Source: Moniliella sp. 'wahieum' (lineage: Eukaryota). Taken from it: a DNA stretch of 64,000 nt. The notes under the pieces were generated by a model, which was given only the letters and a program-made list of their open reading frames with translations, was not told the DNA's origin and searched no databases. The DNA lies in assembly GCA_003971905.1 (NCBI GenBank), contig RSEE01000096.1, forward strand, positions 1-64,000. The letters are read 5' to 3'. Below, in pieces: positions 4,557 through 62,904 of this stretch (position 1 is its first letter; every line of letters begins with the position of its first letter). The translations under genes and the position numbers were made by a program.

Positions 4557-5059
4557 CGCCAGGAAACAAGCAACGGCAGCGGACACGAGACAGCAAGCAC
4601 CGCTCGGGACGCACGCGTCACGTGACGTGTCATATGGCGGTCGCGTGTCACATGTCACATGTCAGAGACTGGGGTCCGTGCGCCGATGGCAAATGTCAAA
4701 TTGCTGTCAAGCGGCAGCAGAGCAAGCCCCAATTGACTCCTCCTGTCCTACCGCCTTCTGCCCCGACACGATTCCACCATCTGGTACGCTTCCCGGGGTT
4801 CCCCGTCGCAATGAGGGTCAAATAGCGTGGCATACCCGACCGGGTTTCCATGGCTGGAGGAGAGATTTTGCTTTTCTCCCCCCACGCACTTGTCCCATCA
4901 TTGCGCTCCTAGCCCAAGGATGTGTGACGGGCGAACGCTGGCAGGCCGGCCAGCGGTGCGCGCCGATCCCCTTTTAGTCACCCCAAGCCCTTGTATTCGT
5001 GTGAGCGAACGTTGACAGGCGGTCCAACGGAGCTTGTACCCTCCCCAAGTCCCAGAAGA

Positions 5060-5930
5060 AGCGAGAATTGGTCGGCGGGCCAGCAGCGCCTCTACCCCCT
5101 CCGTTCCCTTGCTCCCAAGATGGCTTTGCCTCGCACCCCCGACGAACGAAGGAAGGAGGGGCGTGCGAAGGAGAAGAGACTGTGGCTCGCAATCCCGACG
5201 CTCGAAGGAAAGTGGGGCATGTGAGCAAGAATCCGTTTGGATGGCATGCCCAACGCTCGAAGGAAGGAGGGGCGTGCCGAGTATCCAAGTGCCCAGTCCC
5301 CGTTCCAAGTTTGGTCCCTCCCCACTGTTGGAAGAGAGGGAAGCCGTTCCTTTAAGCATAAGGACACGCTTGGTGCAGAGGAGCATGATGTCACGGGCCA
5401 AGGCGGGATGGCAAGCCCGGCGGCGCCTATGTGCGTCCCTTGCCTTCCTAACCCCGTCCCCAGGTTGGCCAGTGTAGCGGATCCGACCTGATCCAATCTC
5501 CAAGCTAAGGCACGTCTGCTCAATCTGATCAAAGAGCTCGCTCCCAAGTTTAGTCCAGCTCCATCGTGGCTGGCTCGACCGCCAGCGCGATATTGGTGAG
5601 TCTCCTTCGTCTCTTTGTGGTTCTCTGTGATACATGTGATGATTCTGGAGCTAATTGCCTGTCAAAGGTTCATCTTGCTTAGACTACAATCGTGTTGTGA
5701 TGCACTGGGGGTGTTGTTCGACGGATGGGTTTAGTGGGTTGTCAAGAAGCGCTGGGCGGCGGTGCTCCAATCCCAGTGGAACGTGTACGTGCAGCGCGGA
5801 GACGCGGCAAAGGGGGCCAACGTTGGAACTGAGATCTTCGATCCTTGTGTCACCGGGAACACCGACTGGCGGGGTCCGGGAGTAGCATTTGAGCTGGAGC
5901 CGGTAGGGGGGGTTGAGGCATGAAGTTGAA
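5060..5930 (+). CDS. Possible small hypothetical gene (or relic), divergent from the 1160-4556 gene
   Basis: Intron signals GTGCGT(5431)..CTAAC..AG and GTGAGT(~5597)..GCTAAT..AG. Protein-like exon pieces NLQAKARLLNLIKELAPKF and WVVKKRWAAVLQSQWNVYVQRGD. Three degenerate ~54-bp repeats encode W..PT(N/L)EG(R/K)(R/W)G. Confidence 0.3.
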
Positions 5931-6174
5931 GGGATATAACGAGCACAATGACATCCGTTGCTTGTCCCCTCTCCTCCATCTTTTGGCTTCAATTACCCCC
6001 TGACTCCTACACGGCTTCGTGCCATCTCGACTTTGCTTCCCTCTCTGCCCTCGTCTTGACTCCCGGTGCTTCTCTCTGCCATAGACTGTATTTGCCGCCA
6101 GTCCAACTGCCTGGCCCACCGCAACAGACGACCGACTATATCCCCTCCATCGGCCTGAAAAGGCAATTAGAAGG

Positions 6175-6312
6175 GAGAGCGGCCGAGAGACAGCGGCCCA
6201 GAAAGCGGCTGAGAGACAGCGGCCAAAAAAAGCGGCCGAGTGACAACAGCGGCCAAAAAGCGGCGCCGGGAGCGGCCGGGAGCGGCCGGGAGCGGCCGAG
6301 GGAGCGGCGCAA
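6175..6312 (+). repeat. GC-rich minisatellite built on AGCGGCC
   Basis: AGCGGC(C) recurs about every 10-14 bp, e.g. GAGAGACAGCGGCC..AAAGCGGC and (GGGAGCGGCC)3. Confidence 0.8.
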
Positions 6313-7157
6313 CAGGCGGCGCCGCCTTGTGGGGACGGCACACGCGCCCCAGCCGCTCTGCCGCTGCGCTGCTCTGCGCCACAGTGCCCGAATGGGTTCT
6401 ACCGACGAGGCACGGGGGCAGCGGGCGCTCAACGCCCGTTGCGCCCTCCCGCGCCGGAGATACCGACGGGATGGGTGACCGGTGACCGGTGACGGTGACG
6501 TTTACCATCGATCACTGATCACACTGTCACCCCTGAGGCTGAGGCCAGGCTCGTGACGCGTGAGAGCGCGTGAGCAGTGGGAGTATGCACGAGTACGCCC
6601 GCTGCGAGTTGCCAGCTGCTGGGAGCGCAACCGGGTGACCGCCCCCAACATGGTGGCGACCCATCGCCCTCCCCACACGAGGCCGGCGGCAAAGCAGGCC
6701 ACGCAGGGGCCCTGCCCCTGGTATACTTGTAGCGCACCAAGTCCGACCGCGTTGCCTTGTACCGGATGCCGGTAGCCACAGGCACCGACTAATCGACAGT
6801 CGCTCAGCAGCAGATCGAAGCCATGTATCTTTACCTACAGCCTCGCGCCTATGCCCTCGCTGCCTCCATCGCGTATCCACGTTGGTCCAGCACGCCATCA
6901 CCCACCACCTGAAACCACAGATCAGATCACCGCCGGCTGCCGAGATGCCAGCACACAGCATAACCTTTTTCGCCTCGTCGCCCACTTGTTTCCACCGGCC
7001 GCAACCGCACCTCCCACGATCGCGTTCTGGCAGCTATAATGGCTAGCACACACGCCACTCCTCTCTCCCTGCTCCCCCACCATCCCTCCTATCCCTAGGC
7101 CGTCACCCCCAGCGTCTCGCCGTTCCCGCCTCCCTTCCGCCGCCGCCGTCAGCCTCC

Positions 7158-9586: not shown

Positions 9587-9811
9587 TGATGAGACCTGGA
9601 GTCCTGATGGTCCTCTAGGGTGATGCAATCGCACTGGTGGTGGTGGTGTGGCAAGCAGCATTGCCTACAGAGGAACGTCAAGCAGCGAGTCGCCATCAGG
9701 GGCTAAACTGCAGGACAAGGAGAAAAACAGGAGAGGGAAAACAGCGGAACTCCTGCGCCTGAGGAGGAACTGAAGGGACATTGGCCAAAGCACGAGCCAC
9801 CCAGCTCAACA
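9587..9811. mobile_element. Solo LTR (225 bp) with a perfect 5-bp target-site duplication
   Basis: TGATGAG...CTCAACA ends (TG..CA, 6/7 inverted match), flanked by CATTG at both 9582-9586 and 9812-9816. Homologous to 15681-15920. Confidence 0.85.
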
Positions 9812-12690
9812 CATTGCCTGCTTGGCCCACGTGCGTTGCGTCTGCGGTCAGTATTCCTTCATTGTGATGTGTGATGATGTATCATGCATGATGATGATCG
9901 GCCTACAGAAGAGGCGGACCGGCCTGAGCCCAATTGAACCGATTGACCGTTGGCTGGTTGACGCGTTGACGTTGAACACATGAGACTCAGTAGGGGCCAT
10001 CTCCATCTGACTGTGCGGTCAGTTGGTCACCCGGTCAGGGCACAACATGGGGTTGAACGGTACATTACCCGTTACGTATTGCTGAAAGATACCCAGCATA
10101 TACCCTGCATATAGACAGGTCATATGTTAGTGTTAACGTACTGAGTATTACTGAGTATTACTGAGTACCGGGTGGGAAAAAGTCATCGAGGGCATATCCA
10201 ACCTAGGGGAGAAGGCGGTGGCGCTCTATCTCTCGGTACATTGGTATAATAATAGAAGTCACTCTGGACCCAAAACAGAAAGGATTAAACCGGTGCAGAG
10301 TGGTCTGTGGCACGGTTGACTTGTTCTGAAACGACTACTAAACGGGTGCTGGCAGGATTGGGAAGGGCCCGTGCGTTGGCCGATATTACGCATGGTGTGA
10401 GCAGATACACTATACCTTCTTGATGGAAGGCGAGGGGAAAAAGCACAGTATGCTCTTTACCCATGTCTGCATCTCGAAGGAAGAAGCGTGTTCTCGTGAC
10501 GAGTTAGTTGTTGCTGTATACGCGCCCCACTTTGTCTTGGCTGTGGCTTTGGCGTTTCTTATACCATTACTTGCATAGGCTGTAATCCCCATATCAACAA
10601 AAAAGGAACCATGCGGGAACACACCCAGTACTCTGGGGGGGTCCAAATGGACAGGAGGAGCCTTGTATACCCCTTGTGCTGGAAGTCCGCTTCTCTTGTG
10701 ATTAATGATTATCGATTATGGAGGAGGGATGCACCCTTTTGTCCTTTCCCTCTCCTCAGGACTCAGGCCTCAGGATAGACAGAGCAGTATACCTAGTGTG
10801 GTCACCGGTCATTCGGGAGACTAGGAGTATACGACAGGGGCACCGAGCGCGTCTGACACCGCGAAACATTGTCACAAACTCGACAGGCAGCGTGGGAAGA
10901 GGCTGAGAGCAACAAGTATTATACCTGAGAACCTGGCTCGCCTCCGCCCCATGCTGCATGTGCATGATGCATGACTCATGAAGCACATGAAGATGTATAG
11001 GTGCTGAGTTGTCTCAGTGTCACACCCTACGGCACATAACCACGTGCTCTGGGCTTGACGAGCTTGACGGACGACAGGGGCCGCGGTCCCTCAGAACCGG
11101 ATCCGACTCTCAGGACAAAGCGTCATCGTCCAGGGTCGTCGGAGTTTGTCCTTTTAGGCAGAAGGGAGCGACGGGGCGGGGAAGCCTCCGGACATTTACA
11201 GACAGCTATGCGGCTGTGTGCCGGAGCGGATCCGCTGCCCGGATGAAAATCGAGGGTCTGTCGTCTGTGGCGTCGATGGAGCGGAGGGAATGTGAAAAAG
11301 GATGACCAACGCGCTTTATTCTGAGACCGTCCGTGGTCAGCAATGAGTAATGAGACTCTTCATCTCCAGGTATGCCGCATTTCATAGACCTCTCATCTTC
11401 GACTCAGTATTTCCCCGGCCTTTCATCTCATCGAGGCTCGTTAGAATAGTAAAACAGTCTGGGGACTATAAACGTGGGACGCCGCGGATTTCCGCCGCAG
11501 CGCCAGAACCGCTTGAACTTAACGTTACGACGGAAGCTTAGCAAGCATTTTGTGCCCAGTGTTGCGAGAGCAATGTATCAACTGTTGATCCTGACTGGCC
11601 TGCGTTCCCAGTCTCTTCGAACTGCGTCAAACTAGCGTAGTACCAGTGTCCTTCAAAACTCGGACCGCGCTTCTTCCTTCACCCGTGCCTCTAGTTCTTC
11701 ATCTGCTGCACCTGCTTTTATGTCTTCCCGTTTCGTAGAGCTCTACTCATCGGTCTGATCTTCGGCTCAAGATATGTATTCTGATCGTGGAGCTCTCATT
11801 TCTTAACCCATTTTTGTATCGTATAGAGTTCTTAGGCCTCTTATTTCTCATCGACGTAGGTACTATATATAGCCCTGATGGGGGGAGGGGGAGAGTTGCT
11901 GGTAGGAAAAACATCCCCACCATCCCTTTGTCACCGTGCAACCCTTCTCAAAACCCATATGTTGGTTCCTCTATTTTTTACCACCATCAAGCCCTACGAC
12001 GGGCACCGACGGTGAGCCCATGATACTCTACCGCCCCGAAGGCGAACTCACGTATCATTGCCTCACCCTCGACGTAATATAGCGGGACGGACGAGTGGCT
12101 CGGGTGGGTACGTTCGAACTGGTTGCAATGTGCAGGGTCCAAGCCACCTCCTCTACCACTCCTTCTCATTGCATCCTGGTGCGTCCTAATTGCCATGACG
12201 TTTACCTCCACGAGCAAATGGTTTCCAACCCGGAAGGAACAACTTCTAGCTTCAAGCTTCAAGCTTCATCGATTATCTCTCATACTGTAACACGAAACAT
12301 GCGCTGCATCGAGGTGTCACTTTCCTTGACAGGAAACTACAGTTGAGTTGAGTTGCAAACTCAAGTCATTTCTTGTTCGTGCAGCTTCCGCGCTCTTTCC
12401 TGCTGCCACGAGAGTAGGTGATGGGCGTGGCGTTACACGCCAGATACAGATGCCGTAGGACCTGTAAAACGCGTCAAACTCCATCATGTCACATGTCAGC
12501 CCCGCCATCTCCATCGGCACCGACTACTACCACCACACGCGTGTTGATGGGTTGTGTCTCGTCAAGATAACTTGTGACAGTGCTTCGACGTTCCCACGAC
12601 AGCATCGGATCGGCCTTTAAGCTTTTACCCCACCGACCTTGGCAACAGTCGGATAATGCCGTCAAGATAACCTGTTTTTTTCAAATACAT

Positions 12691-13610
12691 TTCCCCCCTG
12701 TCCCAGCCTTAAGCTCTGTCAATGATATGGATGCAGAAGAGAGAGAGGATTCAATGGTGACCGGTGACCGGTGAGATCTGAGATGCAGAGAGAGCGAAAG
12801 AAAGGCTGCGCTATTGTAGCGAGGAATAGGACCAGGGGCTACGGTACAAAACACGACGTACAATGTGGGTGTGGGGGTTACATATACGGTGGAAGTCATA
12901 GTGCATATATTGATAGCAAACCTCTAGGACTGTAGTGCGATGAAGGCAGAAACCGTAACAGTATATGGCTGGGGCAGGCGATCAGGGCCTACTCAACACA
13001 TCGCCCACCCTGCCGCCACCCGCCCCCCCCCGCCACCGTTAATAAAAAGCACCCGTGCCCCGCCGTCCAGATCTGATCAAACCCCACCAACCTCCCCCTC
13101 CCTCCCTTCCCCTGTTGCATACCCCCCCACAGAGAGAGCGTGGTCTCTCTACCCAAGCCTCTTTTCACCGACCCCTTCCATTCCTCCCGCCGCCCCTCAC
13201 AGTCTGCACAAACCTGATGAGCCTGCTCCCGTTCCAATCATTTCTTCCCCTTGAGGGGCTTGCCCAACTTCGTCTTGCATCTGGCGATGCCGTGCCTAAG
13301 GCTGATTTCGGGCTTGGCCCAAACGGCACCCCGACCGGGGTCTCCGTTGAACAAGAATCCCTTGGCCCAAACGGCAGCCCGACTGGGGCCTTCGTTGAAC
13401 AAGAAGCCCGTCTCATTCGAGCCAGACTCGGAAAGCGTTTGCCACAAGTCTCCGAATATGGACCCCACGGCCTGGTACAAAAGCTCAATAATGTTGGACA
13501 ACCCTCAGAAATCGAGGCGGCCGAGGCGGCTCATCAGCAGCAGCGGCAGAGGGGAGTGGACGTTACTGCATCTTCAGAATCCCTATCCCACGAGGAAGAA
13601 AAGATGGAGT
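12691..13610 (+). repeat. Segmental duplication, copy 1 (promoter and 5' coding region)
   Basis: Aligns by eye with 20414-21680: shared TTTCCC..TGTCCCAGCCTTAAGCTCTGTCAATGATA, ATTGATAGCAAA, AACAGTATATGGCTGG, TCTGGCGATGCCGTG and ATTCGAGCCAGACTCGGAAA. Confidence 0.9.
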
Positions 13611-15295
13611 TTACGAAGGGCCCGGATTCCACCGCCCCGAACAACATTCAAAGTACAAACGGAGGCGGTGAGACGGGATTGGAAGGTGGAGCATTGAACA
13701 GACTGCACAGTCACGGGAAAAAGCCTGCCACATCGATCGAGTCGGTTGACATTTGGTTCAGAAACACCCGCACACGGTCGGGCTGGACCAAATTTTCGAA
13801 GCTTATGCTCAAAAGGATTTGGAGAAGATGGACCGCATCATCACTCAATGCTGGCCGATCCAGACCTTTGCCTCGAATGTAGAAAAAGGTGGTGATGACG
13901 CTCTGAAGGGTGTTCGCCAAGAACACCTGTGGGGCCTTCAAGGCATCCTTGACACGAAGCCTTCCCGTTCCAAGCGCAGAAAGACAGCATCCGGAAAATC
14001 GGCGTCGGCCAAGTCCACTCATCGGGGAACGAAGTGGTGGATGAATCGACCGCACGCCAGTGCTTCACTGACTTTCAAGCCATGGTGCAATACATCGCCA
14101 TGCCCAAGGACGAACACGTTCGCGCTTGGGTTGATGATGTAGCGGAACTCGCGCGGAAGACGATCCCTGGCTCGTACATTTATGGATCCAATGCCGAGGA
14201 GAATCGGGCCATGTGCCGGATTGGATGCTCACGTCCTCCGCCCCAGACTGTCTTTTGCAACCGTTGCAACCTTGTAGTCTCTCTCTTTAACTGTTATTGA
14301 ACACCAACAGGTCATTGACATTTTCTTGTAGTCCCACTTCAACAGAGCCCCCTCATTGACTGACGGACCCGACTCGTCAAATCGAACCTTAGCAGTGCCG
14401 CATTCACTCCTGGGGTTCAGTACTCTGATTACAGTGGGAGCCCAAATGTGGGGGCGAATGCTACGCCTGGGGATTACTCGGGTGGTCAACCCGGTCCGTT
14501 CAGCCAAAGTCCCACTTTCAAAGAACTCTTGCGTCAGGCGATCTTCTGGGAAAGTTTGGTCTCTGCTCCGACGGGTTTGCCGAGCGAGGTGAGAGAGAGA
14601 GGGTTCATTCTGACGTTTTTCCGAAACAATTAGATATCAACTGATTTGGGGGATGGACTCTACCCCGCGCCCCTTTTAGAGGGCTTGTTTCTCAGAGCGG
14701 GATTGACTACCATATATCTCGCTCGCCTTCCGGTGGCGCAGAGTCACATCCTCTGCAATGATTATCTCTCAATGATCTGTTCGACAACAAGTTTTCCATC
14801 TTCTGCCCTCATCATCCTCAACCACCACGGGGAGATCCATCTGGCTACTGGCCAGCATTTCTCCCACTGATTTTGACGCCGTACCAGGCATTGGACATTT
14901 ACTCTGTCTTTATCTAGTGCCCAGCACCGAGAAAGGGGCAACGTACATGTCCCGTGCTTTTAACACGCTTTCCCACTGCGTTCACGGATCTCTTTATCTT
15001 GCGCGCGTGGGGTTGCACTGGCCATTGCTTTCCTTTTATATCCATTTTACCACAACCCGGTGGCACTTTTCGAAGGTGTGCACAGCAACTGCTATCTGCG
15101 TTTCTATCGAAAAAATCCCCACGGATTCCACAAAGAATACAAACAAATCTGTTTTTTCACATACTCTTCTTAAGATCCAATCAATCAGAAATCATTTCTA
15201 TATCGTGTGCTCTTCTGTATAGGTGTGTGAACCGACTTATAGGACCCCTATATCATGGCCAGGGAGGGATCGCCGAGAAGAAGTGCCTGTATTAG
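13217..15295 (+). CDS. Hypothetical protein (multi-exon, paralog of the 21325 fragment)
   Basis: ATG at 13217 (MSLLPFQSFLPLEGLAQLRLASGDAVP..). Consecutive overlapping ORFs at 13753, 14034, 14448 and 14646. Intron 14589-14633 (GTGAGA..CTGAC..TAG). No family recognised; the 3' end is uncertain. Confidence 0.5.
13313..13408 (+). repeat. In-frame 48-bp tandem duplication
   Basis: Encodes LGPNGTPTGVSVEQES / LGPNGSPTGAFVEQEA; the paralog at 21325 has only one unit. Confidence 0.9.
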
Positions 15296-15680: not shown

Positions 15681-15920
15681 TGATGAGACCTGGGGTCCTG
15701 ATGGCCCTCGAGGGTAATCGAATCACACGGTGGTGGTGGTAATCTAATAAGCGAAACAGCAACGCCTGCAGAGGATCATCAAGCAGGGGTCACCATCAGG
15801 GGGCTAATGCAAGACAAGGAGGAAAACGGGAGAGAGAAGACAATGGAACTCCCAGGCCTGAGGAGGAACTCAAGGGACATTGTCCAAAGTACGAGAGCCA
15901 CCCTATGGCTAATAACATCA
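15681..15920. mobile_element. Second solo-LTR-like copy of the 9587 family
   Basis: Begins TGATGAGACCTGGGGTCCTGATGG and shares GGTGGTGGTGGT, CCATCAGGGG and CCTGAGGAGGAACT..AAGGGACATTG.CCAAAG with 9587-9811. Ends ..ACATCA (or ..TAACA at 15917). No clean TSD. Confidence 0.75.
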
Positions 15921-19325: not shown

Positions 19326-20413
19326 GGTGAATGGTTGAGAAAGCGTGGATGTTGAGGTGGGAGAGCGGGAGAGGGAAGGCGATGGGGTGGTGGGAGAAAG
19401 AAGGCAGAAGGGGGGGGCTGGGGGGTGGTATATATATGCTGTTTTCGCTATAGAGATCAGTTCCATGGCAGTTTTTGTTACGAGCAATAGAAAGAGGGGG
19501 AGTTGGGGGCGTGCACGGACCATAGTGGATCAGTACTGAGACTCAGTCGCGTTCTGCAGCTGCTCTCGTCGCAGCAAAGTCGCTCCGGGCACGTGGCTAT
19601 GTGGGAACATAGAAGTGCCGAGAGAAGGGAACTAGCATATAGGAATAGCGATGCTCACCCAGACCATTTTCGGTGTCCTCTCCCAACCATCCGCGCGCCC
19701 CCTCAGAATATGTCCGCACAGCAATACGAATGCCTGGTACAATTGTTGTACCAACAACGGCGAAGGATACTATTATCGTCCCTTGGCTGTTGGTGTGCAC
19801 AGCAGACACCCCCGTCCTGCCCCCCTGCAGCGCAACACCCCGCCGGACTTTGCGTTGGGCCCACTCCTGCTTCTCTCGCTCCACCGGCCACCGGCCACCC
19901 CGCACCGCCAGGGCAGATTTCTCACGTTAAAGTCTAAAGTCTAAAGGTCCAGGCCGGAGGCAGCATACCACTGCGTTTTGCACCACAGTGTGATCGCGCT
20001 GGTTTCAGGTTTTGTTGCCTGGCGGGCAGCTCTCGGACCAGGCAGCATGCTGACGGGTCCCTTGTGTCTTCCTCGGCTCTCCCCTGGGTGTGTGGCTCTG
20101 GTTGGCCCTGCTCCGCCCACTCGGCCGACCGCAGCAGAACACAGCTCCGCAGTCCAGTGTCGTACCTAAGCGTGTGTTGCTCGTGTTGGTCTGTGGCGCA
20201 CCGCAGCCAGTCGGAGGGGTCACGCGTGACTATATATATACACTTCAAGGGTGACTTCACGCGTCACAAAGCAAAACGCCCGAGATATAATACAGCTCCA
20301 TTACACGATGACGCCATCCGTCCTGTGCTCTTTCCATGTCTTGTATATCCTAGCGCGAGCTTGGCTGCGTCGCAGCACACGCAAGATGCACAGGTCGGTT
20401 GGGCGTCGTAGCG

Positions 20414-21680: not shown

Positions 21681-21700
21681 ATGATGCAGGACCCGGATTT
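21325..21700 (+). pseudogene. Truncated paralog of the 13217 hypothetical gene
   Basis: MNPNKELQSLFPLRQDHAQLGPASGDAV..IRARLGNRLPQV..VDVTSS matches the N-terminus of the 13217 protein. Similarity stops at about 21680 and is followed by transposon-like debris. Confidence 0.7.
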
Positions 21701-47736: not shown

Positions 47737-49858
47737 ATGGACCGCCTTCTCCTGAGCACCGCCGCGGCGCTCGTCGCTGTGTCCGGTGCATCCGGCGCGT
47801 TCGTCGACCAGTACTGGAGCATGGACTGGGTCCCGAACCAGGACCCGCGGCGCTCGGCAAGCCCCGTTCGGCGGTCGGGTACAACAATACCTGGCCTCCG
47901 CCTGTGGTCAATGTCAACTCTACCGACCGACTCCACATGACCATGTACAACAACCTCGGTCAAGGCGGTTCGTTGCACAGCCATGGGATCTTTTTTAACA
48001 ACACTGCCTACTACGATGGTACCACCCCGGTCACCCAATGTCCCATCCCGCACGGGGGCAATTTGACGTACGAAGTGCTCAATTCTGCGCGGGCCGCGCC
48101 CAACTCGACGCAAAATGTGGGAACGTACTGGATGCATTCGCATACCGAAGGTGCCTACACCGATGGCATGCGTGCCCCGCTTATCATCCATCCCGCCGAG
48201 GGCAGCGCGCACCACTACGACGACGATTACACCATTATCTTTAGCGACTGGTACACGCGCTACAATGCCGATCTGCTCCAGAATGAGTTTTGAACAAGAA
48301 GAACCCGACGGGAGCCGAGCCGGAGCCAGACCGGTGCTTGAGTACGTTTCTTTTCTTTGACCTTTCGTATGGGAGGGGGCGCGGGGCGCCTTATGTTTTG
48401 AACTGGATACGATAGTGGGTCGGAGCTGACACTGACCTTCGCATCGGGAATAGTGTACGCCGCTCGCACGCGGCAAGACGGACCGGTCAATCCTCCGTAC
48501 CTACCTGGGTTTAACGAGAATGTGACCATCCCATTTGAACCGGGCAAGACCTACCGTCTGCGATTTACCAATGAGGGCGTCTTTGCCATGGCTAACATCT
48601 GGATCGACGGGCACGATATGAGCATCATTGAGCTCGATGGGGTGGAGACCGAGCCCTATCCGACCGACGTTGTGCCTCTTGCCACAGCCCAACGGGTCAG
48701 TGTCCTCGTCACCGCGCGCAACGATACGTCCCACGATTGGCGGTCAACTCGTACCAAAACACAGCCATGTACGATGTGATTCCGCCCGAATTGCGGTTGT
48801 GGAGTACATTCGAATCGGGTACGCTGCCGAGCCGCAAGAACTTGGCCCCACCACGGAAAAGTCCGACTTTCCCTTTTCAACGAGATGGCCCTGCGTCCGA
48901 TCGAGGTCAAGCCCATCCTTTCCCCCGATTCCAAGGCGCTCGTTCCCTTTAACTTCAACACCTTCCGCAGCAACAAGAATTATGCGACCGTCATGGAGAA
49001 CCAAACTACGTTTATTTCCCTCAGACCCCTTCCTTGTTCACTGCGATGACCATGGGGGAAGATGCGCGGAATATGGACGTGTATGGCCCGGCAGGCGGCA
49101 ATGCGTTCCTAGGCGACTGGCTCACCACGGTGGAGATTACGATTCAAAACATGGACACGGGCGAAACCCGTTCCATCTGCACGGGTTCCTGTTCCAGGTT
49201 GTGCAAAAAGTACAAGACTACACCACTGCCCCGCCTGTCAATGAGTCCCAACCGAACCCGATTCGGAGAGAGACACAGTATCAGTCCCAGCGGGGGGCAG
49301 GTGGTGTTGCGTGGTGTTATTATTGATGTCCGGGGGTCTGGTTTTGCACTGTCACATTCAATGGCATCTTCAGGTACGTGTGTGTCTCTATACCCCTTTC
49401 CAACCTTTGGATTTTCCTCCGTCGTGATGCGCAAAGTGTATCGGTTTGGCCTAACTTGTGTTGTTTGTGACGTACCATGCAGAGCGGGTTGGCTGCGTTG
49501 GATCGCGCTGCGCCCGAACGAATCCAAAGTGAAATCCCACTTGCCCGAGGGGATGAAGGAGGCACTGTGCTGCGATGGAACTTGCCGAGCGAAGGGAATG
49601 CGGGCGGACTGTACTCGCTCAACCAACTTTGGCACGTTGCCTAAACAAAACCGAGATAGTTCCGGTAGGGGGACGGGTAAGGCGACGGGCGCTTTTATTG
49701 GGTGCTTGATCAGTGCCAATCTTGGGCATCGGGAGGAGCATCATTATTTATGGTTCTGGCGAGGCGGATCCGGACGAGGAGTATATCCTTAAGACCAAGT
49801 GGTACAAGTCCCTTTGGAACAAGGCCCGGAGCAGCAACGCGTAGTAACGGCGCATAAA
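47737..49858 (+). CDS. FET3: Multicopper ferroxidase
   Basis: Signal peptide, SLHSHGIFFNNTAYYDG..VTQCPIP, GTYWMHSH..YTDGMRAPLII, FEPGKTYRLRF, IDGHDMSIIELDGV, PFHLHG, and LHCHIQWHLQ|.GL with a Leu axial position. C-terminal TM segment; divergent from FTR1; many indels. Confidence 0.95.
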
Positions 49859-52800
49859 GTAACCTAATATTATATGCACACAATGTGCTTTTGTGGGATA
49901 CCACACACACATGTCTTCGTGTCGGCAAGTGGACTGGTTGGTTTGTTGAGTGGATTTGACGACCCCATTCCTTAGTACCTGCCTCGTTCTCTTTTCTATG
50001 CCTTGGGTCTAAGATGCGAGTAGAATATAATGGTTCAAAGCAAACTGTAGCCTTTGTGATCCAAAATGAACTTCTCCCACTTCCCATTTCATTGGGAGAG
50101 AGATGGCCGCTGGAAAGTGACGCCGCGCGGGGTCGGTGGGTCTTACGACACAACGGTGTTCTATATCTACAGAGTGACAAGCTCAATAAGGAAATGCCTT
50201 ATGCAGTAGTAAGTAATAGATTCACAGTAAGCGGTATATATACGTCGTATTCCTCCATAGGGTCATAGAGAAACAAGAGCAGCCAACAACTGACCCGTAT
50301 ATATATCTTTTGTTCAACGGCTGTGGTGCAGGGCGTATCCAGGGAGACAGGATGTGACGGCTAATGCGAGCGCCAAAAGGGACTGCGGAGGTACATCGGG
50401 AGGTGCACGGTGGCAGCCATGTGGCTTTTGCTGTCCCTCTCTCATATTTGATGGACACAATGGATTCGTTAGTAGAGGTTGTTGACATCCGCCCGAGAAA
50501 ACCGTGCGGACCCTCAGTTGTGTCAGTTAGTTTTTTCCTTCCTTCCAAGCCCGCACCAGTGTACTGGACAATTCAGTCGCACATGCTTCTTCGTCCCCAA
50601 TACGGAGTTCAGTGCTCACAATCACAGTGGTAGTATAGCGAACCCGACAGACTTACCTTATTCATATCTGCTCATCCCTGAGCTGGCCAAAACTACACCA
50701 ACAACCATGGGCGCTAAGGTTAATACTGATCTCCCTTGTCAACGACACTATGATCATGATGGTGAACAAGCGCGACCGCTGGACGCCAGCCTGCAACCCG
50801 CCACACCGCCTCCACCCCTCATTGATTCCGACGGTAAGGCTCACAAAAGGCGATCGTTATCGAAGCGCACGTGTGGTGTAAGAAGACGGGTTCGATCTTT
50901 AGTTTTAAAGGCCGACAGAAGCGATGGTAGAGGTGATGGCGGAGGTGAGGCCTCAGCCTGAGGTCTGACGCTCAGGTGTAATGTCTAAGGAGACATGGCT
51001 ATAGGAAAAGGAAACGATGGAGACGAATGGCAGCAAGGGAATATTTATAGCTAAGAGCTCGATCATGCATCAAAAGCTTCAAGATTGCATCATACACGGC
51101 CGGTAACCGGAGTGTCCATAGAAAAGGCGCAACTGAAACAACCGCCGATCCTCGGTTTCGATCAAATGATCGGAATGGCGATGCTAGCGCGTAGGCCGTA
51201 GGCCCTAAGCGGTAAGACTTAGCGCCACCTTACAGCTTAGTTGCTAATGCGCTGCCGATTCACAACGTTGACATGGACATGTCCACATGTCATGCATCAT
51301 GCATCGTGTAACATGCGACAGTAGTCTTTCCCTGCCTTGCTACAGTAGGCAGTGGAAGGAGGAGCCTTATTGCATGAGACTGAAGACTGAAAAAGCTTCA
51401 CAGGGCCGTCGGGGTCCTGCAAGCTGCATTGGGCACTAAGGCTTAGTCCTAAGGTGGGGCCACTGCGTCGAGGAATCCTTATCGTATCCAGCTCATGCAT
51501 CATGCATGTGTTCTCAATTTCACTCTTCATATTCCTAGTCGCCTTTACAACGCGATGCATGGTAAGGAGGACACGAAACGCCTGTGCGCAAAACCGATTC
51601 CAGAGGACGTAACAGACGTAACCGCAGTGGGTTCTTGAGCACGTGAGCTCGAACCAGGTCGCGGCGGCCTATAAGCGCTTCGGTCTCTCAGGAGCACTTT
51701 CAGCAATCTCAGAACGTACCAACATCTCAGCCTTTTGAGCGTACTTTCTCAATCTCAATATTCTACTGTGCGTTCAACAACACACAGATGTGTACGTTCA
51801 ACTAACGTTTATCGCCACGTTCTCACAACAGAACAAAAATCCAACTCGCACTTGAATATACTAGTACTACTTAATGCCAGCCAGTACATGTCGTGTCGAC
51901 GGGGGGCGGTTGTACGTTGAACGTACGTGTTGAACGATGAACGTTGTCGACAAAATTAATGAGATCGTTGAGAGAGGCAAGGGCAAAACATGTAACGCGC
52001 AACGCCTCATCAATGTCAGAAAGCGTACTAGTTTTACGCTCACAATACCGGCCATACCCCAAATTTGGCTTCTGTAAAAGGGTCACTGTCGTCATGCTTC
52101 ATGACGGTCCACGCCGGCCAAGCTTCGAGCTTCAAGCTACTATTCAGGCTATAGTCATTGTAGTTAACCAAGCTTCAAGCGTCGCGTGCCAAAGGCTAGC
52201 GTCAATATAAGTGTGTCCTACAGCGGAGGGTTGAACGGTGGTCAGAGAAAAGTCGGACTCTCAGATCTCAGCCGAGATAAGGAGCATGTGTTGCATGCTG
52301 TGCATGTCAATGCATGATGCATGGTCATTCGATCATGAACAAGCAGCTAAAAACACACATTTCTTGGTCCTCTCTGGCATCTCTAGTCTGTCTAGTCCGT
52401 ATAGCATTCGCAGAAGTTGGGCAGCGAAAGAAAAATGCTGTTGAACATGCTTTTGCGCCTCAAGCATCATTTAATCATTAGTCGTTGTTGTTGTGCAACA
52501 TAAGTACCAAGTAGCCACGCGCGATCGATGGAGGGAAGGATTGCAGCCTACCGGCTAAAAAGGTCTAAAAGGTCTTATATTTAGCACCCTAAGGCCCTAG
52601 AGCCTATAAGCTCTAATCGAAAATTGCTTATCGAATAAAGTACCCCCTCGACTCTCTGCTCAGTTTTCCCCGCGCACTTGAAGCTTGACGCGGGAGGTGT
52701 GACGCGTGACGCGCGACGTGGCGCTGTGTGGGGAGAGTATACCGGTACTGTATATGTACGAGGAGCGGCAGTGTGCGGTCTGGTGCGACTGGGGACCGGT

Positions 52801-53048
52801 CTCTAAGTACTGGTAGGATAGTTGCATGAGTTGCTGTTTAAAGCTTAAAGCTTGAAGAGTCCCCAGTTGTGCGTTACATGTGTTACATGTTTTTATTCCA
52901 GAGCCACATCGGATGTCGGAGGTTGTTTGGCCGGCGTTGTTACATGTTATATGCTTCCGCGCGGCACACGGCTGCTTAGGCCTTAGGCCTTAGGTCTTAG
53001 GCCGCTAGCACCACAGACAAGACAAGCGGGCAGCTCAAGCGCTCAAGC

Positions 53049-53100
53049 TCAAGCTTCAAGCTTCAAGCTTCAAGCTTCAAGCTTCAAGCTTCAAGCTTCA
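53049..53100 (+). repeat. (TCAAGCT)7 heptamer array
   Basis: Seven perfect units; the longest member of the TSA + 4-bp-palindrome array family. Confidence 0.97.
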
Positions 53101-53991
53101 AGAAGGCCTGAGGCCTGACCGGCCTGACCGGCGACTGGCCTGACCTATGGGGCTAGCTGAACGCTGGGCTCAGCTGAGCGCTCAAGGCTCAAGATCAGTT
53201 GCGCTACGCTTAGTCTCCTGAGGATGATCAATGACGTTAATGACGTTAATGCATTAATGATGGGAACAAGAAGCCGCAGGCGTTGTGCGTTGTGTGGCAG
53301 TGTTCAACTTGAACACGAAAACACGTTCACGTACAGCGAACGTTGAACGGTGAACGCCGGTGAGGGCCAAAGGTGGTCTGATTTGCGAGGGGAAGAAGCA
53401 AAAACCCCGCACTTGTCTGCACTTTGTACTTGTACTTACTAGCTGCTCTCGCTTCACTGGCAGTGGCAGGCAGTGGTGGGTGGCCAGCCACTAGTCAGGA
53501 TCAGCATCAGTGGCCTTCTCCGATGGAGGGAACGCTGATGACCGTCACGCGTCACCGCTCGTCACAATCATTATATTACCCGAGGCAGAGTGCTCTTGTG
53601 CTTGCTGCTCTGTGTGGGACTGCGATGTCGCCGGCGCAGCGGCGGGGGCAGAGGGCGGCACACCGCCACGCCATGCGGACCAGGGTTCTGGGATCGGCAT
53701 GGCAGTACAGCACTAGAGCACTCCTCTTCAGTCCACCGTCTGAGTCGGGGTCTCAGAGGACAGTACGTGGTCATCCGTCTCATCCATCCGCCCCTGCCAC
53801 CCCGCCCCTCCGCGCCCCTGCCCGCCACCTCAGCCGGATCCGCATCCGCTCGTCGGCAGCAACACAGTATCCAGTCCTCAGCAGCGCCAGCAGCAGGTGG
53901 TACTGCCGCAGGGCTTCGTTTATCTATGTCGCTGTCCCTTCATCTGCTGCTCTCCCCGTTGCCCAACCTCCTGCCCCTCCCCCCCCCCAGC

Positions 53992-55599: not shown

Positions 55600-58500
55600 C
55601 AGCTGGGAAGATCGTATGTAACGTGGGGGAGGGGACACAAACAAAGGATACGAGAGAGGTATTGCATGGAACCGTTCGTTGCAATCCTCTGTGGGCCAAG
55701 TCTTTGCTCAGCGCCTTGGCCCTCAGTTGGGGGACTTCCAGCTGATCCTCAAGTCCATATGTGCGCGTGAGATGCCGCCGGGATGAAGTACTCTCTCGTT
55801 GCGTTCCTCCCCATGAATGGGCCCTTCTCGTAGTTGTGCATCAGTACTTTATGGCCGTCTTGCTCTATCATACACTTCTTGGTGCAGACGTGCTGAATAC
55901 TGTGCCCATACCTTGACACAGTCCCTTGAGCTGGGAACCGATGTGCACTTGCTCCTCAAACAGCATCAACAATTGCATTAACCATCTCATTGGTTCCATC
56001 CGACAGTCATGCTGTGTTTCGTTTGAACACCGTTGGTACTTGCTGAGGTCCGTCTGTTGATCATCTCTCAAAGTGCATGTCATGCTGCGCTGGACCAACT
56101 GGGGCAGTCGTTCTTAGTATGTTCGCCTCAAAGACCCACGATCGTTCAACTGCTGTCATTGTGCGCTTCAACATCCACGACAGGTGTTCAGATGCTTCGG
56201 TGGTGCATGTTCCCAACAGACTAGAGTGGACGGAGAGATAGGCTGAATGATAACATACATTAGTATGTTCCTATTATAAATGCTTGATGTGGAGGATGGG
56301 GAGCACATGCTTGGGAATGGAGAGCGCAGGCTTGGGGATGACGAGCGCAAGGTTGATGGTGGTGATGGGCACAAGCACATGGAAAGTATAGGCTTGGAAA
56401 TGGCGGGCGCATGCTTGGACATGGCCGGCACAAGCTTGGAGACGCCTCAGGACACAAGGTCGAACCAACAATTGCCACCGGCCGAGCGCAAACGTGGGAC
56501 GCGACAGTGAGACAGAGCACCACGTCGTACTTGCATAAGAGCAACTCGAGCTTGAGCATGACCGTGACGAGCGTTGAGATGGGGGTAATGATAAGGGAGA
56601 GCGACGTGGTAAGGGCCAAGCGGCTGGTGGAAGAGCGGGTCAGAATGAGGAAAGGTGGGATGGGATGGAATGGAATGGGATGGGATAGCTTGTGACATGC
56701 TTACCGATGCGCGCGACCAGGCTGCACATGGCCAAGACGACGTTCGTCGAGATGAGGAACCCAAGCTCGACGACAGCAGAGGCGGCCAAGGAGGTGCACA
56801 TGGGCCGTCAGAGCGTCGGAATGGGACGGCGTGGCAAGCTGTACGGCCTGCTTGGACGTGGGCGAGGCAGGGGGGGAGATGGCCGAGACGAGCGTCCAGA
56901 TGACCAACTCAAGAGCGACGGTGCTGGCAGCAGGCGAGGCGGCGCTTAGTTAGTCAATGTATTGCCGAGCTCTCTGGTGCTTCCCACTGAGAGAGTTTCT
57001 TGTGCTGAGGGTTAGTTAGTTAATGTACTGCCGAGCAGGCGTCCCGTCTGGTGCCTCCTCCAGAGAGCTGTTAGTCAATGTACAGCCGAGGCTGCATGCC
57101 CTCTGGTGCCTGCCTCTAGCTGAGACAGCTTCACCCTGGATCACTGCCTCAGTGCCGCTAGTGTTGCGGCACAAGTCAGACATAGCTTTCCTATTATAGG
57201 CCCTGGCGTGGCCCAGATTGGCCTGTGCGCACAGATTGCTTGCGCTGCAGGCGCACGTCCCCTTAATCACCTGCTCCTTTGTGGTTGCATACTGTCTCCT
57301 CACCACCCCCCTTCTCATTGCGCCCGTAGCAACCAGTATCCCATCCCTACAGCCAGCACATGGCAGAGTGCTCTGGGCCACGGTACAAAAACTGCACCAT
57401 CTTCTTCCCCTGGTCACCAACATCACCATTGTTGCAGCCTGCACCGCCTGCTGCCCGCTTTTCTCATCCCTCCCCCATCACTCGGTCCTGCTAGCCTAGT
57501 CGGCATTGCAGCTGTACGTCTCCATTCCCTCACCCGTCACACTCCGTTCTCCTCGCCTCGTCTGCATCGCTGTTGGACCCCCCCCCCCCTTTTGCCCCAT
57601 CACCCCGTCCCCCTTTCACTGTCCATGCATCGCTTCTGCCGTACGTGCTCCTTCCCTCTTGCACAACAGCGCGCCGTTGCTGACCTGGCCCTGCCGCCTG
57701 CATACACAGACTTCCCCTCGCCGGCCATTAGTGCATTAGCCCCACCCAGCCAATCGGTTAGAGAGTCTACAAGCACATCCAACAGCTACTGTGGCGAGAG
57801 GTTTCCAACAAGATGGGGTGGGCAGTGGTTGGGCCAAAAGCCAGGAAGGGTAACTGGGATCAAACTTATCAGGAGATGAAGATGGGAGCAAAGATGAGGA
57901 TCGTATTCATCGAGTCGACAGGGGACGAAGAGGGATATATGCCTCGGAGAAGAAGATACCATGCGAGCTGGATCACGGGGACAGAAAGGGGAGCATAGAC
58001 AAAGGGGGGAAACAGGGTCTATAGAACAAATCAGGGACCACAGTCAACCTGGCGACTATGGGTAACCAGGTGGGTCTGATCCCGCCAGGGTAAGGGCTGC
58101 CCCTTTCACCCAGTGCATTCCATCAACATTGGCCTCACCTCGATCTCTCCTCAGTCGTGACAATGACACCCTCAGTCCCATCTTGATTTGCATGCACAGT
58201 ACACTCTGGTCGGCGCAGAGCGTAGAGCGAGGTGTCTATCTGGTGTGCAAACGTATCAGTAATGGCACCATGCATCGTTGGCAACAGGTTTGCGCACACT
58301 TTTCTTATGGATGGGCGGGTGAGTGCGAGTAGGATACGAATCAATAGGCGCAACGGGTGTCTTATATCCCAGCAGCTTGATGCAGCGCGTACAGGTACTG
58401 CCTGTGTCCTGCAGTTGACGTGCAGGACACGGTGTAGCCATCAGATACAGGCACAGTACTGCGGTAGTACACCTGTTGGCATACGAGTTGCGCGACAGCT

Positions 58501-58650: not shown

Positions 58651-58694
58651 AGATCAGATGGGGGTGCAGTGCGGTGCAGCAGAAGAATGAGGAA

Positions 58695-59228
58695 TTAGGT
58701 GCTTGGCAGGGGGGGGATGGACTTGCCCATGCGTACCAGCGGCACTGCATCGAACAAGCGCTCGATCTCCGTGTAGCCGCAGGAGCGATACAGCGGTTCC
58801 CCCGCCAAGGTGCCGGCCAGTTCGAGGCGAGTAAAGCCCTCTTTGCGCGCGGCCTCTTCGCACAGACCGAGGATCTGACGCCCGACACCGCGACGGACAA
58901 AGGCCGGGTGGGTGTACATGGCACGCACGCGGGCTGCGTCCTTGGTGGGGTCGAGCAGCGCCGGTTCGCGACCGGGCGTGTGGTCACCACCGTACATGGT
59001 GTTGCGCCGGCTCCAGCCGCCGCAGCCAGCGACCTCGCCCGAGGGCGTCAGCAGGATAAAGTACGTCTGGTCGTGCAGCAGCTGCGTGTCCAGCCCCATC
59101 ACTTGCCGGCTCGCAGCGACCTGGTCTGGCGTGAGAAAGCCGTGCTGCAGCTGGCCGATTGACAGGTCCATCACCTGCCGCAGCGCAGGCAGGTCGTCCA
59201 GCGTAGCGAGGCGCGCGACGAACGCCAT
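58695..59228 (-). CDS. GNAT family N-acetyltransferase, intronless, bacterial-like
   Basis: Intact 177-aa ORF: MAFVARLATLDDLPAL..MGLDTQLLHDQTYF..AGCGGWSRRNTMYGGDH..LLDPTKDAARVRAMYTHPAFVRRGVGRQIL (motif A)..LAGEPLYRSCGY..VPLVRMGK. Confidence 0.93.
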   Translation of the reverse strand: MAFVARLATLDDLPALRQVMDLSIGQLQHGFLTPDQVAASRQVMGLDTQLLHDQTYFILLTPSGEVAGCGGWSRRNTMYGGDHTPGREPALLDPTKDAARVRAMYTHPAFVRRGVGRQILGLCEEAARKEGFTRLELAGTLAGEPLYRSCGYTEIERLFDAVPLVRMGKSIPPLPST

Positions 59229-59966
59229 GGCGGTGGAGGTGGGCCGAGCGGAGATAGCTGATGCGTGTCGATACCGTGTCGCGCAGGCACGGTTCGGTCG
59301 GGGACTCTTCTGACAGGAAAAGGGAGCTGTGATAAGGCCATAAGGGGGGGCTGGGTGCACGTGATTGCCAGGGTGATGTGCTGGGCCAAGGAGAGAGGCG
59401 ATGGATCCCCAACGGGGACGTGTGGGAGGGGATGTGCGCATGTGATGAGGGGGTGATGCCGCAGCGCTTGCGTGGGGGAGGGGTAATGGGTGATGCGGGT
59501 GCGCAATGGGTGACAGGCGCATGGTTGCATGCTGGCCCTGCAGGGGGGCGGCAGCCGGGGGGTGCGGGCACGGGGCGAGTGGAGACGTGGCGCGGGCGGC
59601 GGGGGGGGGGGCGTGCGGCGGGCGGGCTGAGCACTGGCGCCGTGCCCGTCGCCGCCGCGCCAGCACAGGTGCGGCAGGCAGCGGCCACACGGGCGCCGTG
59701 CCAGCGGCGCGGCGGGTGCACGGCGGCGGTGTGGGCCGGGCCGGGGGCACACACGGGCGTGCTGCGCGGGGGGGCTGGGGCGCTGGGGCGGCGGCGGGCG
59801 CTGCGTCGCTGCTTCGCTGCTTCGCCCCTCCATCCCACCGGCCTGCTTTGGGACACGCCGGCGTGTCCAGTGCGCTCCTCGTCCTTCTCTCGGCCGTCTG
59901 TGTCGTCTCTGCCGCCACCACCGCCACCGCCACCTCCACCTCCACCCCTCCTCTGCGCTGGCCGCC

Positions 59967-62177
59967 ATGAGCAGCCCCCCCGCCCCTCGGCTCGGCCCCC
60001 ATCGGCCGCACCGCCTCCCCGCGCCCCCCAGCGCCTCCCAGCCCGCGCCCCGCCAGCCCCGCCGCCCCGCGCACCGGCCTCCCCTCCCGCCCCGCCCCGC
60101 ACCAGCCCGACCTCGCCCGCCGCTCCTACGGCGCCGCCAGCCCCAGCCCCAACCCCAACTCCAGCTCCGCCCACTCCCAACCCCGCCGCCACCGCCCCCG
60201 CCGCCACCTCCACTGCGGCCCCTGCCGCCCAGGCCGCCTCCAACTGGCGCTCCTCCTCCATCATGGGCTCTGCTGCGCCCATGGCCAACCAGCGCATCGC
60301 CCGCGCGGCCACACCTCCCTCCTCGCCTCGCCCCTCACTGGGGTTTGGCGGGGGCCTCGGCGGCGCCACCTCCCACTCCTCCTCTCCCGGGCTTTGGTGC
60401 CTCGCCCCAGCCCCAGCGGCCCGGCACGGTGGGCGGCATGCCGGCCGGCGCGCACCTTAGCTTGTCGGCGCATGGCACGCCGGCCGACCAGAGCGGAACG
60501 ATGGACCGTTGGTTTGAAGATCTGCAGAACTACGAGCATACGCTCGAGGAGATGGCCGCTGCCTCGCTCGATGCCAACTTTAAGGAAGAACTGGGTGCGA
60601 TTGAGCAGTGGTTCCGTGTCTTGTCGGAGGCGGAGCGTACCGCGGCGCTGTATAGCTTGCTCCAAGAGTCGACCCAAGTCCAGATTCGTTTCTTTATCAC
60701 GGTGCTGCAGCAGATGGCGCGCACGGACCCGGTCCATGCCCTCCTCTCGCCCGTCACGGGCTCGCACAATGGCGTCAACTCCATGATGGCTGAACAACTC
60801 GAAGCCAAGATGTCCTCCCTCGGCTTGGCCCCGCCCACGTCCCAGCCGCCCCAGGGGGGCAAGTCTTACCGTTCCCCTGCGCTCGACGGCAGTGCCGCTC
60901 TGAGCAGGCCGCACGACTCAAAGCCAACGTACCTCGGCCCCGGAACACCTTGCCCACTTCACCTTCCCGGTGGCAACACCACAGGCACGCGTTTGCGCTA
61001 GCCGCTGGACGAGTATCGGAAGGCATTGCGTCGCGGCCCGAGCGCGGCCTACGACGCTCGGTGCGCCGGCTGGCAGCCAGTCCCGCTCTCTATTCCGGGC
61101 AGCGGTCCGACCAGCCCGCCGCCCGACGAAGGTGTCGTTGCCGCGTCGGGTCGCACCCGGCTTCGCGGTCGCGTCCGCGCGCCCGGCCTCGGGCGAGGCG
61201 CCCCTCGCGCCTGCTACACACGACTACCCCTCCGACCCGGCTGCGGACTGGGAGACGATGCGGCGGTGCTGCAGCAGGCCAGTTGGCCGCGCAGCTCCAA
61301 GCGCAGGGAGGACTGTACGACCCTGCGCAAGCTGCGGACCTACTGCGATGCGGGTGCAGCAGCCTTGTTGGCCAGTCCCTTGGCTGCCCTTGGCTCGCCC
61401 AACCCGGCTGTCGGTGGCCTTTCGACCGCCGCATTGCGGGCCTGCAGTCCCCTCGGGAGGGCTGGGAAACCCAGCCAACTTGCAGGCGATGAATGCGCTG
61501 GCCGGGCTTGGCGCCGGCTTGTCCCCGCCGCAACTGATTGCGTTGCAGAGAACCTCCTGGCACAAATCGCCGTGACCAACGGGCAGTTTGCCGGGTGCGC
61601 CGCCGCAGGGTTTGTCGCCCACTTGGGCGTGGGTGCGCTTGCCCAGCACGGGAGCCTACTCGGCCGCTGGGTCGCGCCAGGCTTCACGCCAATTCCACGG
61701 TGCCGGCTTGAACGTGGCAGCGGCGAATGCGGGTGTAGGTGGCGAGGGGGGGTAGGTGGAGGAGTCGGGCGTGGAGGTGTGAAATCGCCACGGCAAGTGC
61801 GTCGGTCGCCTGGACCTGTGCGACGTGCTCACTAGCCTGCCCCGCGTCCGCATACGCCACACACGAGGACGAAGTGCTGACCTGAGCGTGCTGGAAGATA
61901 CAGCGGCGTGGTTACGCCAGTTACGCCTGCACAAGTATACGAGTAACTTTGCTTCGAGCGAGTGGCCGCGATATGGTCGTTATGGACGATGCGGCGTTAC
62001 AGGCCATGGGCGTTGCTGCGCTCGGCGCGACGCAAGATGCTCAAAACGTTTGATGCGGTGCGCAAACGGTACGGTATCCCCGACCCGCCGTCGATCAAGG
62101 CTGAAAAGGCCGTGCGAAGGAAAAGGAAGCTGCGGGCGTGCCTCCCGTCCCGCGTTGCCTACCCGCAACCAGAGTGA
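59967..62177 (+). CDS. VTS1: Vts1/Smaug-family SAM-domain RNA-binding protein
   Basis: DRWFEDLQNYEHTLEEMAAASLDANFKEELGAIEQWFRVLSEAERTAALYSLLQESTQVQIRFFITVL, and a C-terminal SAM domain LEDTAAWLRQLRLHKYT..GVAALGARRKMLKTF. Frameshifts lie in between. Confidence 0.93.
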
Positions 62178-62904
62178 GCAGATCCACGCCCGTCGGCGCT
62201 CTTGCCCAGTGGGTTTGGGTTTGCGTTTGCCTTTGTCTGCCCCGGTAGGCGGTTGAGTCGGGTCCAGTGAAAGTGCAAGCGCTGGTGGGGCTAGGGACTG
62301 GGGACTGTGGTGGATTGGTGCATGGCGCATGGCGCATGGCGCAGATGCGCAGCTGCCGGGTCGCTAGTCTCTAGTCTCTAGTCACTCTACTCTCTCGTCA
62401 CTATGCTACGTTTTGTCCCTGTTATTGGTGGTGGTGGTGGTGGTGGGGATGGAGTGGCGGGAGATGGAGCATAGATCGATAGGGATAAGCCTTGGTAGGC
62501 ACCAGGATAGCTGCTTGTGCAGTGGAATCGTAAATGTCCCTGTCGAATGTGCTGCGAATGGCGAATGGCGGCGACGCCCCGTTGGGGCACGGATGCGCCG
62601 ATCGGCGCAGGGTACCGGTCACGTGGGTGTGCTGGGCGTGACGCGTGACGTGCGACGCGTGACATGGATATCACATGTCAGGTGCACCACACCTTCCACG
62701 TCAGCACGAGAAGGGTGCGATGGGGGTGCTCGCCTGCTCCCCGCTCCTCGTCCTGTCTTTTGCCGAGGCCGTTCCCCACCACCGTCACGGCTACCGTCAC
62801 GGCTACCGTCACGACTACCGTCACGACCGCCCTGCCGCCCCCCGTCTCCGTCTCCGTCTCCGTTCCCGCCGTCGTCTCCGTTGGCCCCCCCGTGTGTAAG
62901 CGCC

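Follow-up and report, generated by a model that had tools for sequence, protein, structure and literature searches.

Flank-templated heptamer arrays in a Moniliella genome as probable excision scars of a DNA transposon

The window analysed here comprises 64,000 bp of contig C96 (positions 1–64000) of the fungus Moniliella sp. 'wahieum', from an assembly of 69.5 Mb in 223 contigs. Its non-coding DNA carries tandem arrays of heptamers, in which a triplet of the form TNA alternates with a 4-bp palindrome that we term the core. The pattern is real, genome-wide and mutational, and each core is specified by the two nucleotides that flank the TNA. A cut-and-paste DNA transposon with nnTNAnn as its target and a 7-bp target duplication probably left the arrays as footprints of its excision.

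Templating of the core by its flank

The heptamer arrays were first described in an earlier note made from the letters of the window alone, and all 15 of the sites listed there read as claimed at their coordinates. In the window TNA–[4-bp palindrome]–TNA occurs 78 times, compared with 7.6 ± 3.0 expected from 60 local dinucleotide shuffles. Palindromic cores are enriched, and non-palindromic ones are not in excess between TNA triplets (119 versus 121.5 shuffled). With the same triplet on both sides there are 66 units, where ~2.3 are found on shuffling, and these make up 49 arrays located between 4648 and 63854. No comparable excess is seen in the window for other triplet frames (ANT 6 versus 8.4, CNG 18 versus 29.7 and GNC 31 versus 30.2), nor for palindromic cores of two or six bases (21 versus 31.5 and 1 versus 2.0, respectively). 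The triplet had been described as TSA with TWA exceptions, but is really T-N-A, with N tracking the abundance of each triplet in the 834-kb sample described below (TGA 109 with 99 expected, TCA 99 with 99, TTA 33 with 34 and TAA 25 with 34). The units are self-complementary as had been stated, except at the N of the TNA itself.

The core is templated by its flank. A site bc-TNA-de is found as bc-TNA-de-e'd'-TNA-de, or in the mirror form as bc-TNA-c'b'-bc-TNA-de, where the primed bases are the inverted copies; in the window this rule holds at one end or more in 40 of the 49 arrays. In 188 arrays from the first 264 kb a one-sided match to the flank of exactly 2 nt is far commoner than one of 1 or 3, and non-palindromic control cores lack the 2-nt match. 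Genome statistics were taken from 78 sequences totalling 834 kb, comprising the window together with spaced and some targeted 10-kb stretches, and excluding 29 loci that were overlapping, from the second haplotype or LTR (long terminal repeat). In this sample there are 266 one-sided single units, compared with 2.5 after shuffling and 37 in the next best triplet frame. The rule predicts the existence of mixed arrays in which bc sets the left block and de the right. Among 27 such arrays, 25 have two blocks and two have three; 17 are templated at both ends, while in eight others the fit fails at one end or both. Those at 12758, 24979 and 45494 in the window fit fully. The cores are thus not freely interchangeable, as had been supposed, and each is predicted by its two neighbouring bases. 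The view that slippage alone is inadequate for mixed arrays stands. We found no published description of the rule in the literature searched, most of it outside subscription papers.

Single units repeat five bases and add two inverted ones. At informative asymmetric sites of the sample, in classes that overlap in part, this 5+2 form is found 150 times (0.3 shuffled), with 3, 4 and 4 in the ANT, CNG and GNC frames. Rarer forms are 6+2 (18) and 7+2 (20), and none keeps three flank bases. An inversion point (the putative hairpin tip) lying one base from the TNA is no more frequent than expected (15 versus 17.7), and one lying at three bases occurs three times. In the 8-bp form the second copy retains one base of the left flank, and in the 9-bp form the full 7-bp site stands on both sides of precisely two mirror bases. 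Where full 7-bp repeats stand isolated with two bases between them, this filler is mirror-derived in 59 of 78 cases, with 15.0 expected. Plain 7-bp duplications with no filler (32) or one filler base (11) are not TNA-specific under the asymmetric-site filter. Among repeats exactly 7 long with gaps of 0, 1 and 2, those centred on TNA number 37, 19 and 25 (0.5, 2.5 and 1.5 shuffled), and those in the other frames 6/3/7, 8/9/3 and 10/9/12. From the 6+2 and 7+2 forms the target-site duplication (TSD) must be 7 bp, and duplications of 3 bp (Harbinger type) and 5 bp (Transib type) are ruled out.

The sample contains 547 arrays with all 16 palindromic cores represented, at 0.66 arrays per kb. This extrapolates to roughly 46,000 arrays in 69.5 Mb, assuming that the sample is typical. 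The two-unit AGCT array has 2,280 overlapping matches genome-wide, and its reversed control none. The arrays are non-coding, as had been claimed: no unit falls in the 245 most codon-periodic 240-bp windows compared with 558 in the 2,154 least periodic, and outside coding DNA the units are clustered, with a variance of 0.66 and a mean of 0.26 per window. Pfam-matched stretches of the analysed window (3.2 kb) contain none of 57 units. Contigs of other fungi have just 16 units in 530 kb (79 metagenome loci around the same gene, partly redundant), whereas there are 598 in 834 kb here. TCA–CGAW arrays, which the earlier note ascribed to smut fungi, are almost missing from the sample (1 and 0 matches), and no 7-nt insertion was found in eleven copies of a solo LTR that were compared.

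The assembly carries two haplotypes (or subgenomes) that are 85–97% alike. The pairs compared are C17/C62, C127/C44, and window positions 40454–64000 with C106:188186–214185 (−). Most arrays between 45494 and 63845 of the window recur on C106, and so are not an assembly artefact. Gaps of 5, 6, 7 and 8 nt between haplotypes number 21, 36, 39 and 13, with a peak at 6–7. In 81 kb of alignment 40 seven-base gaps comprise eight flagged as new units, five arrays longer by one unit and 27 others. On reading, seven of the eight are clean and one is unclear, so that seven of the 40 gaps set a scar against an untouched allele at an orthologous site. The clean pairs are TTA-gtac, TGA-tgca, TGA-ccgg, TCA-tgca, TTA-agct, TAA-ggcc and TCA-catg, and all follow the flank rule. 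About one new unit has arisen or been lost per 460 substitutions between haplotypes (7 versus 3,245). Cores predicted by flanks, and haplotypes that differ by single 7-nt events, support the second reading offered in the earlier note, of a specific mutational or repair process. A separate 7-nt gap, near 4120 of locus L043 in comparison with L068, sets ag TTA ctag TTT against ag TTT; in this single case a third mirror base may have supplied the first A.

Origin of the arrays

Judged from their sequence, the scars appear to behave as hairpin-type excision footprints. Insertion of the transposon would duplicate bcTNAde (7 bp), and its excision would seal each flank as a flush hairpin with RAG/Transib-like geometry. 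RAG-type hairpins are flush, and hence give even palindromes. A host nuclease of the Artemis/Pso2 type would then open the hairpin 2 nt away from its tip, so that two palindromic (P) bases remain, and end joining would retain the P bases of one side while trimming two, one or no bases from the other. Such a scar would create new TNA sites with palindromic flanks, where further hits would add the same unit, and a hit resolved from the opposite side would add the core of the other flank and so generate the left-block/right-block mixed arrays. Scars that renew their own target would thus explain the existence of arrays. Slippage would afterwards lengthen some of these, and frameshifting would purge scars from coding DNA. 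For Ac/Ds (PMC5873905) and Muta1 (PMC5499845), published work describes hairpinned flanks and P insertions, and a doubled target with short palindromic bases between the copies is the known scar of flank-hairpinning transposases, including Ac/Ds (PMC5873905), Muta1, Transib and RAG (PMC5499845, PMC1131882). Artemis is described as cutting hairpins at the apex or 2–4 nt from it (PMC13041557).

Excision footprints are usually seen at a few dozen per assay; here they would form a genome-wide fossil record, from which TSD length, target motif, hairpin geometry and the outcome of end joining may be read from sequence alone. They would constitute a non-slippage origin of tandem repeats, and from them one would predict a transposase whose target, 7 bp long and centred on TNA, is unusual. 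They also offer a caution that an enriched intergenic motif is not necessarily a binding site. A more specific proposal, to which we give somewhat less credence than doubt, is that an undescribed RAG/CACTA-related (CMCT) transposase lineage with a 7-bp TNA-centred target wrote tens of thousands of stereotyped hairpin scars, which re-create the target and found a class of heptamer repeats. If true, this would be a transposase-driven birth of microsatellites and a genome-wide record of hairpin repair; at its boldest, the enzyme would now be element-free, a host 'DNA-writing' activity.

Several observations weigh against the origin by transposon excision. No element with an nnTNAnn duplication was found in scans for terminal inverted repeats (TIRs) and TSDs of the sampled DNA (~1.4% of the genome). 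KDZ, hAT, MULE, Plavaka, CxC2 and Harbinger transposases have no Pfam match in the genome, although these searches (seven families) give weak negatives. The one young EnSpm-like family has TSDs of 2 bp (GG, TA and CT) at non-TNA sites in three out of three copies read at both ends. The differences between haplotypes are unpolarised for gain versus loss, there being no outgroup. The number of P bases is nearly always two, a spectrum narrower than that of published footprints, and forms with full P bases on both sides are not found (0). Lastly, the bias of 9-bp forms to sites where bc = de that would be predicted is not clear (9 versus 4.7, p = 0.05).

Regarding the individual searches, PF05699, PF04937, PF18758 and PF18803 (hAT/KDZ) are unmatched in the genome but the controls also matched nowhere, and PF13359 (DDE_Tnp_4, PIF/Harbinger) has no match; both are weak negatives. 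None of the large indels between haplotypes is an nnTNAnn-flanked element. At 57088–57832 the window has 745 bp that C106 lacks; a 3-bp GCC repeat bounds them, and no TIR was seen. Pattern searches for a candidate element gave no pair ~4.9 kb apart among the first 100 of 127 and 133 matches. The Transposase_21 profile matches contigs C17 and C34, and more weakly C127 and C44. These Tnp2-like loci (C17/C62, C34 and C127/C44) have no TIRs within the flanks examined, and a search for homologues longer than the C17 transposase was negative, though weak. Decay is evident in the two pairs that could be tested; substitutions by codon position are 14/18/16, 19/25/11 and 33/23/19, and the Tnp2-like genes tested are therefore not under purifying selection. 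The gene on C34 (L042, 513.4–516.7 kb) is single-copy with long open frames and no TIR, and no second-haplotype copy was found; a Helitron 5' end lies 0.5 kb downstream.

The relic on C127 led to a young family of DNA transposons of ~9.6 kb, with CAC...GTG ends, short TIRs and 23-bp subterminal tandem repeats. Five copies have 99–100% protein identity, and the copies at loci L110, L111 and L113–L118 (contigs C16, C3, C20, C19 and C153) are 99.3–99.6% identical. The family has no Pfam match of its own; its ends, together with a 29% likeness to the C127 relic, are the grounds for classing it as EnSpm-like. Its 2-bp TSDs at non-TNA sites rule it out as the writer of the scars. A sister subfamily is present at 55–67% identity, with loci on C98 (~98.4 kb), C108 (~90.5 kb), C145 (~7.1 kb), C9 (~1,058 kb), C84 (~135 kb) and C52 (~370 kb), and EnSpm-like transposase relics are plentiful in the genome (90 matches in all), which we count in support of excision scars. 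A 3' fragment of the young family lies at 55663–55895 (−) of the window, 86–93% identical, and is present in the second haplotype too. An abundant repeat that was suspected to be an element end proved Helitron-like instead. This non-autonomous family occurs in the window at 32129–32449 (+), 20380–20452 (−) and 12694–12731 (−), and has a 5' TC, while after its 3' GC hairpin come CTAG or CTCG and then T. Footprints of Tc1 type, in which element ends are left behind, are rejected because the flank dictates the core and every one of the 16 is found.

The resident element might be dispensed with altogether if a host or domesticated nuclease, or a non-inserting transposase, made a 7-bp staggered cut centred on TNA, with fill-in duplicating the site and a hairpin, formed and then opened, adding the two mirror bases. 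The outcome in sequence would be the same, the form spectrum is very uniform, no resident element was found in 834 kb containing 547 arrays, and TIR-less Tnp2-like genes are present in both haplotypes. However, filled-in blunt ends would have no obvious route to a hairpin, and those Tnp2-like genes that were tested are not under purifying selection. We regard this origin as unlikely, while giving it more weight than the alternatives that follow.

Replicative template switching, in which a polymerase copies two opposite-strand bases and re-primes at a quasi-palindromic TNA, would yield a short inversion with a duplication. In its favour, more of the 7-bp units lie at palindromic sites than expected (67 versus 25.5 of 323); this excess fits cohesive ends or re-use, and plain duplication as well. 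But CNG, GNC, ANT and other arm lengths should work too and exhibit little or no excess, and neither the 8- and 9-bp forms nor the sharp 7-bp boundary is explained. The geometry, confined to TNA and to two bases, largely refutes template switching as the origin, and we think it very improbable.

Equally improbable in our estimation are selected binding sites for a factor that reads TNA-N4-TNA, an idea to which the earlier note had given the form of a binding grammar with free cores. The units are indeed non-coding and clustered, and the TNA bases of units shared between haplotypes differ less than the flanks (1.3% versus 5.1%). Yet a free-core grammar needs a spacer independent of the flank and enrichment of any N4, and neither holds: cores follow the adjacent two bases, non-palindromic cores have no excess, and 8- and 9-bp spacings occur. 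Cores in shared units differ at 5.3% of bases and whole units at 2.9%, close to a neutral expectation of ~2.5% (about half the flank rate, because intactness in one haplotype was the basis for choosing units), so that there is no clear sign of selection on units, although weak selection may be acting. Some arrays may have been co-opted secondarily.

Ordinary microsatellites compounded by long-read error are the least credible source: unit number does differ between haplotypes (at 53049 and 52261) and 1-bp indels are frequent (701 in 82 kb, which suggests unpolished long reads), but arrays are common to both haplotype contigs and far denser than in the other fungal contigs, and slippage as the origin is rejected by the single unit of five repeated and two inverted bases. 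Slippage is likely to have contributed to the elongation of arrays.

Arrays and other features of the window

The simplest arrays have one type of unit. Two left-type units following the flank rule are found in tg TCA catg TCA catg TCA (4646–4664) and gg TGA ccgg TGA ccgg TGA (6474–6492), and a single one in gt TGA acgt TGA (39921–39932). Right-type units are TCA gatc TCA ga (46802–46815), which is 8 nt shorter in the second haplotype, and TCA tgca TCA tg (51493–51506), present in both haplotypes, as is TCA tgca TCA tgca (51290–51303). The sequence TCA gatc TCA gatc (22561–22574) is a palindromic site where both flanks match. At 51435–51441 there is an empty site acTAAgg, for which C106 has ac TAA ggcc TAA gg as its filled allele, while TCA gatc TCA (52261–52270) has one extra unit in the second haplotype. 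Further on, left-type ct TGA agct TGA is followed by cgcg units (52679–52709), then come TAA agct TAA agct TGA (52839–52855), a TTA ggcc array common to both haplotypes with point changes (52976–53003) and (TCA-AGCT)7 (53049–53100). The last is far shorter in the second haplotype, and we propose that the difference arose by expansion via slippage or repeated hits. The pair cg TGA cgcg TGA cg and TCA catg TCA (62637–62680) aligns poorly to the second haplotype.

Four mixed arrays illustrate the two blocks. That at 12248–12277 has a left block of agct (flank ct) and a right unit tcga (flank tc), and its last triplet TTA is probably a decayed TCA. Both ends are templated in gg TGA ccgg TGA ccgg TGA gatc TGA ga (12756–12783), ct TCA agct TCA agct TCA cgcg TCA cgcg TCA cg (24977–25011) and ga TGA tcga TGA tcga TGA agct TGA ag (45492–45519), the last being identical in the second haplotype. 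The 8-bp form is found as gt TGA cg cg t TGA cg (9957–9971 +), where the t is the retained left-flank base, ta TCA cc gg a TCA cc (23541–23555 +) and ga TAA gg cc a TAA gg (59331–59345 +). The 9-bp form is found as cgTCAag ct cgTCAag (11054–11069 −) and ccTGAcc gg ccTGAcc (53114–53129 +). Two 9-bp forms and one 8-bp form are clustered at 53230–53259, where the second haplotype has a gap of 8 nt at 53252.

The Pfam matches in the window are fungal genes (MFS, DUF3759, poly(A) polymerase, two multicopper oxidases, Vts1 and Tup1). The poly(A) polymerase piece has its highest identity among named relatives to Ustilaginomycotina (65–73%; Tilletiaria, Tilletia, Ustilago and Violaceomyces), so that the fungus is taken to be smut-related. 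The multicopper oxidase genes are 12 kb apart (33295–35857 and 47634–49326), with more paralogues on C14/C19 and elsewhere. The open frames of a GNAT acetyltransferase match (58695–60125 −) and the Vts1-domain match (59631–61001 +) overlap on opposite strands; the matched stretches do not. Solo LTRs (TG...CA) of two families lie at 9587–9811, where the TSD is the 5-bp CATTG, 15681–15910 and 21958–22420. A tandem array of ~40-bp period at the contig start (1–560) is possibly subtelomeric, and a diverged duplicate (12957–13628 and 21076–21699) is 68% identical over 690 bp.

Comparison with known systems

PIF/Harbinger elements prefer TNA/TWA targets, and in this resemble the scars. Their TSD of 3 bp (PMC12730594) is too short to give either the copied flank bases or 7-bp repeats. 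The hAT element Ac/Ds resembles the present system in its doubled target, in a short insertion that is palindromic and in slight trimming of the joint, with one or two dominant footprints, but its palindromes are odd, centred on the complement of the element-bordering base (PMC5873905), whereas those here are even. The hAT TSD is also 8 bp, compared with 7 bp and a TNA centre here.

There is a likeness in geometry with V(D)J coding joints and Transib/RAG, where opening ~2 nt from the apex gives two P bases (PMC13041557, PMC1131882). The palindrome at the flank end is even in both. Transib/RAG differ in a TSD that is 5 bp and GC-rich. A 7-bp TSD is known in basidiomycete hosts, in hAT7 of rusts and Kyakuja of Agaricomycotina (PMC12730594); the part of that source available gives no target motif or footprint to compare, and no hAT or KDZ domain was detected in this genome (a weak negative). 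Transposases related to the EnSpm/CACTA (CMCT) elements of fungi, such as CNIRT6 and CNEST, are abundant here, and the CMCT clade includes Transib/RAG (PMC12810828). The fungal elements have TSDs of 2–3 bp (PMC12810828), as does the young family described above, and 7 bp would be new for the clade.

The smut Ustilago maydis has numerous small intergenic '10-bp repeats' for which an origin as footprints of past transposition has been suggested (PMC4081816). The likeness is by description only, the published account as available giving no sequence, rule or mechanism, and an account of smut repeat content describes no TNA-core motif in the part available (PMC4824034). Excision scars that renew their own target provide a testable interpretation of these unexplained small repeats in U. 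maydis.

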